Positions 17,519 to 19,173 of a DNA stretch of 25,320 nucleotides are shown piece after piece (the stretch's first letter is position 1; each line of letters opens with the position of its first letter). The stretch is taken from positions 1 to 25,320 of the IMG/VR virus record IMGVR_UViG_3300025635_000142. One strand, written 5' to 3'. This DNA comes from a virus. Lineage: Duplodnaviria > Caudoviricetes. The position numbers and the translations under genes were made by a program. Below the pieces are notes generated by a model, which saw only the letters and a program-made list of their open reading frames with translations, did not search any database and had not been told where the DNA came from.

Positions 17519-18153
17519 AAAAATGGAAGATTCTCAATCTGTACGCTGGGCTTGGTGGAAACAGGAAGCTTTGGCCAAATGATCTATGTGACGTAACATC
17601 TGTTGAAATGGATGAGAAAATAGCATCCGTTTACGCCAGATTGCACCCGCTTGACAAGTTAATCGTTGGTGATGCCCACCAGTACCTACTGGAGCACTTC
17701 GACAAGTTTGACTTCATCTGGTCAAGCCCACCCTGTCAGACGCACTCAAGAATGGCCAAAGCAACCAGGCACAGCCTAAAGCGATACCCAGACATGTCGC
17801 TGTACCAAGAGGTGATTTTCTTGAAGAACTACTTCAAAGGGCTGTGGGTTGTTGAAAATGTTGAGCCCTATTACGGCGTTCTCATTCCAGCCCAGCGTGT
17901 CGGAAGGCACATGTTTTGGTCCAACTTCCCAATTCATGCGCGTGATGTAAAGCGGCCTGGCGGGTTCATTTCCAAATGCAACCTTGCTGGAAAAAAGGCC
18001 ATGCAACAATGGCTCGGAATCGAGTACGAGGAGAACATTTACTACGGATCAAACCATTGCCCCGCTCAGATTTTACGCAATTGCGTGCATCCAAGCATTG
18101 GTCTGGACGTGCTTAATTCTGCCAGAAAGACGCTACACGGGACACTTCTTTAA
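17515..18153 (+). CDS. C5 cytosine DNA methyltransferase (short phage type)
   Basis: LYAGLGG (motif I), SPPCQ (IV), VENV (VI), RNCV (X). Confidence 0.9.
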   Translation: MKKWKILNLYAGLGGNRKLWPNDLCDVTSVEMDEKIASVYARLHPLDKLIVGDAHQYLLEHFDKFDFIWSSPPCQTHSRMAKATRHSLKRYPDMSLYQEVIFLKNYFKGLWVVENVEPYYGVLIPAQRVGRHMFWSNFPIHARDVKRPGGFISKCNLAGKKAMQQWLGIEYEENIYYGSNHCPAQILRNCVHPSIGLDVLNSARKTLHGTLL

Positions 18154-18317
18154 CTCCCCGCCGTGTACTGGTCATACACGCCAAGCTCTTCTTCCAGGTA
18201 AACAGGCTTCACCTTCTTGAGCTTGCCTTTCACAACGCGACACAAGTGACCAATGTGTCGAACTTCGGGAAGGTGGAGCAAGAGCCCGTAGGCGGTTTCA
18301 ATCTTCGGTCGTTTCAT
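18150..18317 (-). CDS. hypothetical protein
   Basis: MKRPKIETAY..., converges on the MTase stop. Confidence 0.45.
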   Translation of the reverse strand: MKRPKIETAYGLLLHLPEVRHIGHLCRVVKGKLKKVKPVYLEEELGVYDQYTAGS

Positions 18318-18441
18318 CTTCTGGAGCGTCGTCGAAGTGACCTTGTTTGGCAACCAATTCGTTGGCGCACGGTTCGCATATTGCGATCCAGTCGTGAAAA
18401 GCCGTGAATGAATCTCCGCAGGTTTGGCAGAACTTCTTCAT
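18298..18441 (-). CDS. small CxxC..CxxC zinc-finger protein with acidic tail
   Basis: MKKFCQTCGDSF...ICEPC...EDETTED, immediately downstream of the RNA array. Confidence 0.55.
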   Translation of the reverse strand: MKKFCQTCGDSFTAFHDWIAICEPCANELVAKQGHFDDAPEDETTED

Positions 18442-18465
18442 TGCGAAGAGTGTCACCAAAAATAC

Positions 18466-18543
18466 TGGACGCCAACGCTGGATTTGAACCAGCAACCCCC
18501 GAGAGCTACCACGGCGCTCTTATCCGTTTGAGCTTAGTTGGCG
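18466..18543 (-). ncRNA. tRNA-like RNA 4 (degenerate anticodon arm, encoded CCA)
   Basis: CGCCAAC/GTTGGCG acceptor + TCCA, D-arm GCTC-AAACGGATAA-GAGC, T-arm GCTGG-TTCAAAT-CCAGC, anticodon arm CCGTG-GTAGCT-CTCGG (mismatch, 6-nt loop). Confidence 0.85.
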
Positions 18544-18553
18544 ATAAAAGTAA

Positions 18554-18649
18554 TGATGTCGGCAAGATTTGAACTTGCAAGGCCCTTCCAACATGCTGGA
18601 GCAGGCCGACCGTTGCAACGGCTTGCGTTATCCCATACGCCCCGACATC
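18554..18649 (-). ncRNA. tRNA-like RNA 3 (short anticodon loop, very long variable arm)
   Basis: GATGTCG/CGACATC acceptor, D-arm GCGT-ATGGGATA-ACGC, GCCG-TTGCAA-CGGT, 27-nt extra arm, T-arm GCAAG-TTCAAAT-CTTGC. Confidence 0.82.
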
Positions 18650-18654
18650 AAAAT

Positions 18655-18804
18655 TGGACGAGTCGCCGGTATGAGTCTGAGGATTTCACGGTTGTTTCAG
18701 TTGGAAGCCTACAGCCGCCTCCTGCCTATCTCAGCAAGTTACCGGACTACTGGCGCTCACCGCCAGCGTGCTTTATCCGTCGATATTCTTTACACTACGA
18801 CTCG
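18655..18804 (-). ncRNA. tRNA-like RNA 2 (150 nt, expanded D- and T-loops, encoded CCA)
   Basis: CGAGTCG/CGACTCG acceptor + TCCA, D-stem GTGT/GCAC with 20-nt loop, CTGGC-GGTGAGC-GCCAG arm, T-stem CCGGT/ACCGG enclosing 70 nt. Confidence 0.75.
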
Positions 18805-18812
18805 AAAAGTGC

Positions 18813-18870
18813 AGATAGCGGCTGGACTCGAACCAGCGACCCAAGGCTCTACCAACTGAGCTACGCTATC
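18813..18870 (-). ncRNA. tRNA-like RNA 1 (no anticodon arm)
   Basis: GATAGCG TA GCTC AGTTGGTA GAGC CTTGGGTC GCTGG TTCGAGT CCAGC CGCTATC T: canonical acceptor, D and T arms with only 8 nt between D- and T-stems. Confidence 0.88.
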
Positions 18871-18904
18871 TAGTTACTTGTAGCAACAAGCGGAGACATG
18901 TCAA
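18871..18904 (-). promoter_or_regulatory. promoter of the tRNA-like array
   Basis: TTGACA-16-TACAAG-6 nt-G1 of RNA 1. Shares CTTGTTGCTAC with the 15311 promoter. Confidence 0.75.
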
Positions 18905-19173
18905 GGTTCCGCTGTGTATCCAGGCGTGTACCGGCGCATGGATTGCAACTCGCGGATGTGGTCTTCTTGGTCGCGGATGGTTTCTTTGAGCGACTGGATC
19001 TCAAAGTTGGCTTCGTCAAAGGCTTCTTTTGTTGCATTTAGCTCTCGTTCGAGTTGGCGGGCTAACTGCATGTCATTTTCAAAGGCGCAACACATCTCCT
19101 TGCGTGATGCCCAATCCAAATAAATGGAATGCAAACGTGCGTATTCCGCGTCCGTCCTGGGTGTATCGCTCAT
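18901..19173 (-). CDS. phage protein, MSDTPRTDA...ARQLERELN family
   Basis: Characteristic N-terminal motif and coiled coil. Confidence 0.75.
   Translation of the reverse strand: MSDTPRTDAEYARLHSIYLDWASRKEMCCAFENDMQLARQLERELNATKEAFDEANFEIQSLKETIRDQEDHIRELQSMRRYTPGYTAEP

Follow-up and report, generated by a model that had tools for sequence, protein, structure and literature searches.

The locus and its tRNA-like array

The stretch of DNA analyzed here (25,320 nt, hereafter "the window") is a 25-kb fragment of a freshwater phage genome, estimated to be 30% complete, whose genes include an integrase, a DnaB-like helicase, exonuclease VIII and a DNA methyltransferase. Its minus strand carries an array of four tRNA-like RNAs with U-rich spacers between them (E1 to E4; Table 1), and a normal anticodon loop is absent from all four modules. 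E1, at the head of the array, had been described from the sequence alone as a 58-nt tRNA-like RNA that had lost its anticodon arm. This was confirmed on the minus strand by the Rfam tRNA model (RF00005), which matched E1 with 46.5 bits (E = 3.6 × 10−7) while skipping an 18-column anticodon arm, and by a parse of the sequence; ARAGORN, run on the window, did not call E1. The U8, A14, G18G19, T loop and 8-nt linker of the sequence-only reading were all recovered in the parse, which has 7/7 acceptor pairs, U8 and A9, a 4-bp D stem with A14, G15 and G18G19, a 5/5 T stem with a canonical loop and discriminator U73. The gene continues after U73 with GCA rather than CCA, again as first read. Within the linker, two U residues stand between C26 and an intact variable region (44 to 48), 2 nt replacing an anticodon arm of 17 nt, and C26-G44 and G15-C48 are predicted to pair. 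The combined D and T motif did not arise by chance in any of 100 shuffles. In a two-dimensional energy model, to which tertiary contacts are external, an alternative pairing of the D region was favored over the tRNA-core fold of E1 by 0.7 kcal/mol and the probability of the D stem was 0.11; the D stem was part of the minimum-energy fold in 45 of 70 family members with 8- to 9-nt linkers. A reading of E1 as an attP site was rejected, since E1 contains the two acceptor strands as a complete pair and is separated from the integrase by 11 kb.

TABLE 1 Features of the E1 locus and related records, with the basis of each assignment
Feature	Position	Strand	Basis
E1, armless tRNA core, 58 nt	18813..18870	(-)	Rfam tRNA model, parse, contigs, family alignment
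E1 acceptor	18870-18864 paired with 18820-18814	(-)	
E1 D arm	18861-18846	(-)	
E1 T arm	18837-18821	(-)	
E1 U73	18813	(-)	
E1 linker, 8 nt: C26, two-base loop, G44, variable region 45-48	18838..18845	(-)	26:44 complementarity, 15:48 covariation
E1 3' trailer GCA and U-rich spacer, module boundary	18805..18812	(-)	Swap boundary in sisters
E2, tRNA-like RNA, 150 nt: 7-bp acceptor, encoded CCA, no 7-nt anticodon loop	18655..18804	(-)	Fold z -1.77
E3, tRNA-like RNA, 96 nt: short anticodon loop, long variable arm, no encoded CCA	18554..18649	(-)	Fold z -3.11
E4, tRNA-like RNA: altered anticodon loop, encoded CCA	18466..18543	(-)	Homolog of tRNA-Arg(TCT) in L441
Two small ORFs 3' of array, 47 and 55 aa, no family	18150..18441	(-)	Conserved in sisters
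-35 hexamer TTGACA, phage promoter family; overlaps stop codon of upstream 90-aa ORF	18899..18904	(-)	Motif copies; unchanged in L439 though spacer differs
-10-like hexamer TACAAG, 16-nt spacer	18877..18882	(-)	Start inferred from apparently leaderless ORFs at 3/4 other copies
Promoter motif copies in window	7337, 12837, 15311, 18904, 24277	(-), (+), (+), (-), (-)	
Upstream 90-aa ORF, no family	18901..19173	(-)	About 90% DNA identity in L439 over 18872-19029
Genome assemblies with NN gap, fake armless tRNAs	L149, L151, L160, L168, L184-L187, L195, L203, L212, L213		

Contigs from runs X1 and X2 spanned positions 18300 to 19100, and contigs from X3 and X4 covered E1, in each case without a difference; X1 is a possible source of the record, and all four are contigs rather than raw reads, from 2017 freshwater runs that were possibly part of one campaign. 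Diverged relatives agree in architecture. Sister contig X5 record 9 aligned to 18651-18870 over 221 letters with 16 differences and 3 gaps; at this length the alignment could not accommodate a 15-nt arm. A short contig of X8 had 3 differences and 1 gap over 18813-18870. A full arm in sister genomes would have undone the original description; the sister contigs that hold the element are all armless.

In E2, a domain of ~75 nt, variable in its hairpin but invariant in its 3' part, takes the place of the T loop; Rfam returned no match to E2, and its invariant motif had no other match in viral sequences. E3 is replaced in X5 record 9 by 75 other letters, and at the position of E4 a relative (L441) carries an intact tRNA-Arg(TCT). 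A metagenome scan for sisters yielded five loci, four of them related in DNA and none with E1, and no sister phages were found among viral contigs via the methylase (best 69%) or the E2 motifs. In sister L439, the slot behind the same promoter is taken by a different RNA of 117 nt (2203-2319), and E2 is retained (2324-2473) with stem-preserving changes; a contig of run X22 links 18808 to 18872, perhaps with other letters in between. The array is a site of modular exchange among sisters and, on these comparisons, E1 is accessory cargo rather than needed punctuation, because E2 comes with a separate acceptor stem and is retained by L439 without E1. Plus-strand frames over the array (18538-18873 and 18569-18859) are unlikely to be genes, the replacement of the region by other modules in L439 arguing against them. 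The 117-nt RNA of L439 has multiple hairpins, ends in CCA and had no Rfam match. A Leu-like tRNA mimic, whose anticodon loop has 8 nt and whose variable arm is very long, also occurs in L439 (2562-2675) and L440 (20-137); neither ARAGORN nor Rfam detected it.

Promoter and likely start site

The motif TTGAC-N16-19-CTACWA occurs five times in the window, against 0.02 copies expected, and one copy precedes E1. At three of the other four copies, an ATG falls on the 7th or 8th base past the hexamer. The reading frames that begin there have 68, 72 and 278 codons, and the longest is the integrase; the fourth has no such ATG frame. The arrangement suggests that these three promoter-driven genes, integrase included, are leaderless (the true start of the integrase is likely 7301). 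G1 of E1 is the 7th base after its -10-like hexamer, as the sequence-only reading had noticed, and the motif copies and their ATG positions support G1 as the likely transcription start in this genome. Processing of the 5' end by RNase P would then be unnecessary here, as had been proposed, but this does not extend to X5 record 9, where 85 extra letters separate promoter and E1; E1 is not always first. A generic sigma-70 scan found 0 sites at E1 because the -10-like hexamer does not end in T. Across the family, a TANNNT box 4 to 8 nt before G1 was not enriched (8/74 versus 6 in a shifted control).

A family of armless cores in phages

A scan with a strict motif returned 31 viral stretches, 18 of them with the exact spacing of E1 and none called as a tRNA by ARAGORN (0/31); a relaxed motif returned about 230, of which 120 were listed. 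The window and both motif sets together gave 142 matches and, among the matches listed, at least 105 distinct cores, whose linkers of 6 to 13 nt were represented 2, 3, 33, 30, 13, 11, 4 and 9 times, respectively. Stems were intact (acceptor ≥6/7, T stem ≥4/5) in 89 of the 105, the pairing positions of both stems having been left unfixed by the scan motif. Linkers of 14 to 19 nt were found in about 560 stretches, compared with about 230 for 3 to 13 nt; among 120 listed, they numbered 3, 3, 8, 11, 28 and 67 and mostly formed short hairpins with small loops. The armless cores thus make up a peak of their own, at one extreme of a broader spectrum of phage tRNAs with anticodon defects. Many of the shortened-arm stretches (L214-L333, from the ~560) have 3- to 5-nt loops on intact cores, a larger class of non-decoding phage tRNA. 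A model (R1) was rejected as a definition of the family, since full tRNAs also score. In L016 (1494-1551), an armless core with an acceptor stem longer by 16 pairs overlaps a permuted-tmRNA call by ARAGORN.

Among 185,579 species genomes there were 71 matches, of which 59 parsed (58 distinct, 31 passing). In 12 of the 71, an NN scaffold gap falls in the anticodon arm, and a few others sit in chromosomal tRNA clusters (L191). Where neighbors of the genome matches had a Pfam match, they included terminase or HNH genes, among them those of a Methanocorpusculum record; further matches were false members, either chromosomal or linked to Ro60. Bacteroidota matches were rejected as members for their tandem order of T arm, hairpin and D arm; these tandem units of YrlA-like order (L165, L171 and others) adjoin Ro60 in L206 and lie near RtcB in L161. 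Armless cores occur in archaeal records L193, L194 and L208, that of L193 upstream of a terminase gene.

Two cultured phages connect the family to isolates. Polaribacter phage Danklef_1 (MT732458.1, 43546-43603) carries a 58-nt core with an 8-nt linker, filed as "tRNA-OTHER, Undet (NNN)", an automatic label in a record that names neither function nor family, and Lactobacillus phage JNU_P5 matches the armless locus L066 at 95% over 180 nt. Members stood alone, with no other T arm within 800 nt on the same strand, in 67 of 102 cases. Judged by nearest ORFs, the surroundings of 45 viral loci varied, apart from 12 loci next to terminase, portal or HNH genes, and no defense, toxin or transferase neighbor was shared among the 45. 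Many members are found where the packaging operon begins, in the interval from terminase to portal, or directly downstream of the capsid gene. Slots next to terminase, portal and HNH genes also house ordinary phage tRNAs. In the L002 lineage, the core sits right behind a long hairpin, 46 nt past the major capsid gene, and this lineage is the best candidate for a role in cis at a 3' end. The literature search found no description of an armless phage core family; subscription papers mostly lay outside it, as did supplements, so tables of undetermined tRNAs could list members. E1 is a real, conserved and apparently undescribed variant of tRNA mimicry, whose function we infer below.

Probable origin by loss of the anticodon arm

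The upstream flank of the armless core of L011 is also present in Streptococcus phage Javan565, where a full tRNA-Phe(GAA) follows it; the two sites are homologous, and armless cores therefore arise by deletion. For E1 itself, an unrelated phage (L334) has a full tRNA-Asn with nearly the same core, a single case and a possible parent type. Acceptor stems and discriminators are mixed across the family, which points to repeated origins and to no single amino acid. Lactococcus P335-group phages (30 records matched, three inspected) have a tRNA remnant of 61 nt that differs in its deletion and in which the D region is re-paired; it is unannotated in L444 (1494-1554) and L445 (199-259) and follows the lysin gene in both temperate-type records viewed.

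Signs of selection on structure

An alignment was made of 23 passing cores, hand-picked from those with 8-nt linkers. Pairing holds in 98.3% of its cells, and 12 of its 18 pairs vary in both partners, an upper view given that the cores were chosen for pairing. The 15:48 pair was G-C in 79, A-U in 20 and other in 3 of 102 distinct passing cores, variation that could have been inherited from different parent tRNAs. Pairing of 26:44, which would close the stump, is harder to account for in this way, being rare in full tRNAs. Among 8-nt linkers, 26:44 was Watson-Crick in 26/38 versus 12.0 expected, and at one core per recognized lineage in 20/32 versus 9.6 expected (P = 1 × 10−4), a statistic that unrecognized kinship could inflate. 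Enrichment was seen among 9-nt linkers (13/32 versus 6.7 expected) and was absent at 10 to 11 nt; full-length tRNA controls had the pair in 2/21, and four other pairings within 8-nt linkers, including 26:45 and 27:44, were not enriched.

The tally of stem changes within lineages that share flanks came to 20. Pairing survives in 17, with both strands altered in 3 of these; about 3 changes are counted twice, and the rows had been pre-filtered for pairing. When 80 loci were picked by a neighboring protein, a D or T motif lay upstream in 18 and both in 17 (11 distinct); the other 62 had no motif, and fully decayed copies would be invisible to this count. All 17 two-motif loci had acceptors of ≥6/7 and T stems of ≥4/5, with linkers of 6 to 25 nt and varying anticodon loop sizes. 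Identity elements showed no comparable constancy: N73 of the 102 distinct passing cores was A in 52, C in 20, G in 18 and U in 12, CCA was encoded in 10/102, and G3:U70 was present in 9 of 89 intact-stem cores. Conservation extends to a general tRNA shape and not to amino-acid identity; the elbow and acceptor core first described in E1 is borne out as a structure conserved across many phages. At L452-L465, upstream of a gene that these loci share, a single tRNA slot keeps its acceptor and T arm constant, but its anticodon arm, unusually variable, comes in at least five versions (loops of 4 to 7 nt).

Comparison with known tRNA-like RNAs

Canonical phage tRNAs (RF00005) share with E1 the 7-bp acceptor, the D arm with A14 and G18G19, the 5-bp T arm and all invariant core residues and are its likely ancestor. 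In place of an anticodon stem with a 7-nt loop, E1 has the 8-nt linker; it has no anticodon stem-loop, cannot decode and has the new, predicted 26:44 pair. A tmRNA alanine-accepting domain, already excluded by the sequence-only reading, does not fit, for pair 3:70 is U-A rather than G-U and no mRNA-like tag domain separates the halves, 8 nt apart; no tmRNA was called in the window. YrlA (RF02553), also present in phages, mimics D arm, T arm and acceptor (PMC4201824), but its order as described there is T, acceptor hairpin and D, and a stem that binds Ro60 goes with it, as does a Ro60 gene. E1 runs acceptor, D, T, acceptor, lacks a stem of this kind and had no RF02553 match at E ≤ 1; Ro60 (TROVE) genes numbered 0 in the window, an estimated 30% of the genome, and were found in 2 of 51 carrier records (2 of the 16 that were ≥90% complete).

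The likeness to eukaryotic mascRNA that had been suggested holds in part. According to PMC11693755, mascRNA and menRNA match E1 in length (about 58 nt), 7-bp acceptor, T arm, D/T elbow and CCA that is not encoded, so that size and the acceptor-T-elbow half of the comparison stand; the claimed similarity of shape does not, since mascRNA retains a stem equivalent to that of the anticodon arm, whereas its D arm is small and the eight linker residues are missing. E1 is the reverse, keeping residues 8, 9, 26 and 44-48 and a 4-bp D stem and having lost the anticodon stem, and it does not belong to the mascRNA/menRNA group. Plant-mitochondrial t-elements mark mRNA ends (PMC1920247), and the nad6 t-element of Arabidopsis, a type that E1 resembles in outline, is described without an anticodon arm (PMC5499578). 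With E1, nad6-type elements share the acceptor, the T arm, the missing arm and candidacy as RNase P/Z substrate. However, t-elements are portrayed in these sources as degenerate and as acting in cis at mRNA ends, whereas the phage family keeps a complete D arm and core and E1 starts at a predicted promoter inside an RNA array. Irregular-tRNA polycistrons and allo-tRNAs (PMC5389517) likewise form odd tRNA-like arrays, some thought to be non-translational and near toxin-antitoxin genes; the RNAs of that account combine an anticodon arm with 8/4 or 9/3 branches or extra loops, unlike E1, which is 7/5 and armless.

Possible functions

We tentatively favor a trans-acting role for E1, in which this RNA, unable to decode, would serve as a decoy for those anti-phage toxins of the host that hold on to the body of tRNA. 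The phage promoter would transcribe E1 from G1 as a 5'-triphosphate RNA, release from the four-module precursor would proceed by cuts in the U-rich spacer and 3' trimming, and host enzymes would likely trim the RNA and add CCA. It would then fold into a short L with a D/T elbow, the 15:48 pair and the new 26:44 pair capping the D stem. Most synthetases read the tRNA anticodon, and E1 would for that reason be poorly charged, keeping a free 3' end; it could neither misread codons nor be cleaved in an anticodon arm, the absence of an arm for nucleases to cut, as originally pointed out, being a matter of anatomy. Such an RNA could compete for enzymes that read the acceptor or body, for example toxSAS pyrophosphokinases, or alternatively could sit uncut on a tRNA nuclease. 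Defenses that target tRNA by reading the acceptor stem are described (PMC11559606), and competition of viral tRNA with AriB has been suggested as a possibility (PMC12409363). We count in favor of the decoy the conservation of shape only, the 26:44 pair, the intact stems at loci picked by neighbor, the start of E1 at its predicted +1, its place as accessory cargo and the want of a normal anticodon loop throughout E1 to E4. Several points weigh against it. The tRNA-based escapes described in PMC12409363 and PMC13096335 supply decoding tRNAs, which is impossible for E1; a large host tRNA pool must be outcompeted; no defense or toxin gene is common to the neighborhoods of members; and the energy model gives the D stem of E1 its low probability. 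Nucleases that recognize the anticodon arm may, moreover, fail to bind an armless RNA at all. It is more doubtful whether phages and proviruses of bacteria and archaea have on many occasions pared tRNA genes to a 58-nt core, stabilized anew by a 26:44 pair, and whether the products form a widespread class of anti-defense RNA that would be uncuttable and unchargeable, would inhibit immune toxins in trans and would be swapped as cassettes in non-decoding arrays; family members may also differ in role.

The alternative that survives best, although we consider it rather unlikely, is a cis-acting processing signal akin to a t-element, in which the fold would recruit RNase P and RNase Z or exonucleases to long phage transcripts, or cap the 5' end of the array, the released RNA being a by-product. 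RNase P, RNase Z and the CCA enzyme recognize just the parts conserved here, the 12-bp acceptor-T stack and the elbow (PMC4810234), the armless nad6 element (PMC5499578) and the position of t-elements at mRNA ends (PMC1920247) offer precedents, and the preponderance of members standing alone, many of them in the packaging and capsid slots noted above, agrees with such a role. For E1 in particular, however, the predicted +1 coincides with the first base, a position that rules out a role at the 3' end of a preceding message, and E1 is absent from L439, which keeps E2. Terminator-like hairpins upstream were not clearly enriched (7/68 armless cores versus 2/42 canonical tRNAs), and neither upstream nor downstream terminators separated the two groups. 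The T arm and acceptor are described as enough for bacterial RNase P (PMC5499578), yet the D arm, 15:48 and 26:44 are kept.

Armless cores may instead be tidy relics of tRNA genes that lose the anticodon hairpin by deletion, the stump being either recent or harmless when well folded, while a misfolded one would disturb its operon. The Javan565 and L011 pair, the continuum of linker lengths (about 560 versus about 230 stretches), E4 as a degraded form of the intact tRNA-Arg of L441, the full tRNA-Asn of L334 and the ease with which the module is lost among sisters all speak for relics. We nevertheless regard this as unlikely, for linkers peak at 8 to 9 nt (33 and 30 of 105 distinct cores) with troughs at 12 nt (4) and 14 to 15 nt (3 and 3 of 120 listed), stem changes within lineages mostly keep pairing, subject to the double counting and pre-filtering of that tally, and 26:44 is not inherited from typical tRNAs (2/21). 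Much less probable is that E1 serves away from the ribosome as an aminoacyl carrier, or else as an EF-Tu sponge, after charging by a synthetase indifferent to the anticodon: the canonical 7/5 acceptor-T branch, G1-C72 in 44/102 and A73 in 52/102 would suit it, but there is no shared identity element (N73 is mixed and G3:U70 found in 9/89), no long variable arm and no shared neighboring transferase gene. That assembly collapsed the anticodon hairpin of a normal tRNA is scarcely tenable and already largely refuted, for although such artifacts exist (the 12 NN-gap matches of 71, and perhaps the few in chromosomal tRNA clusters, such as L191), E1 has identical letters in four runs, is armless in diverged sister contigs and shares its architecture with the finished Danklef_1 genome.

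The presence of tRNA genes in phages has long called for an explanation, and every current answer requires decoding. An armless core under structural constraint would point to a role independent of decoding, one that could be tested with the cultured carriers Danklef_1 and JNU_P5, and E1 offers a natural minimal L-shaped tRNA body for structural work. The class is missed by annotation, as by ARAGORN in the strict set, or is filed as undetermined tRNA. Even if armless cores were only tidy relics, they would still show which half of a phage tRNA is under constraint.
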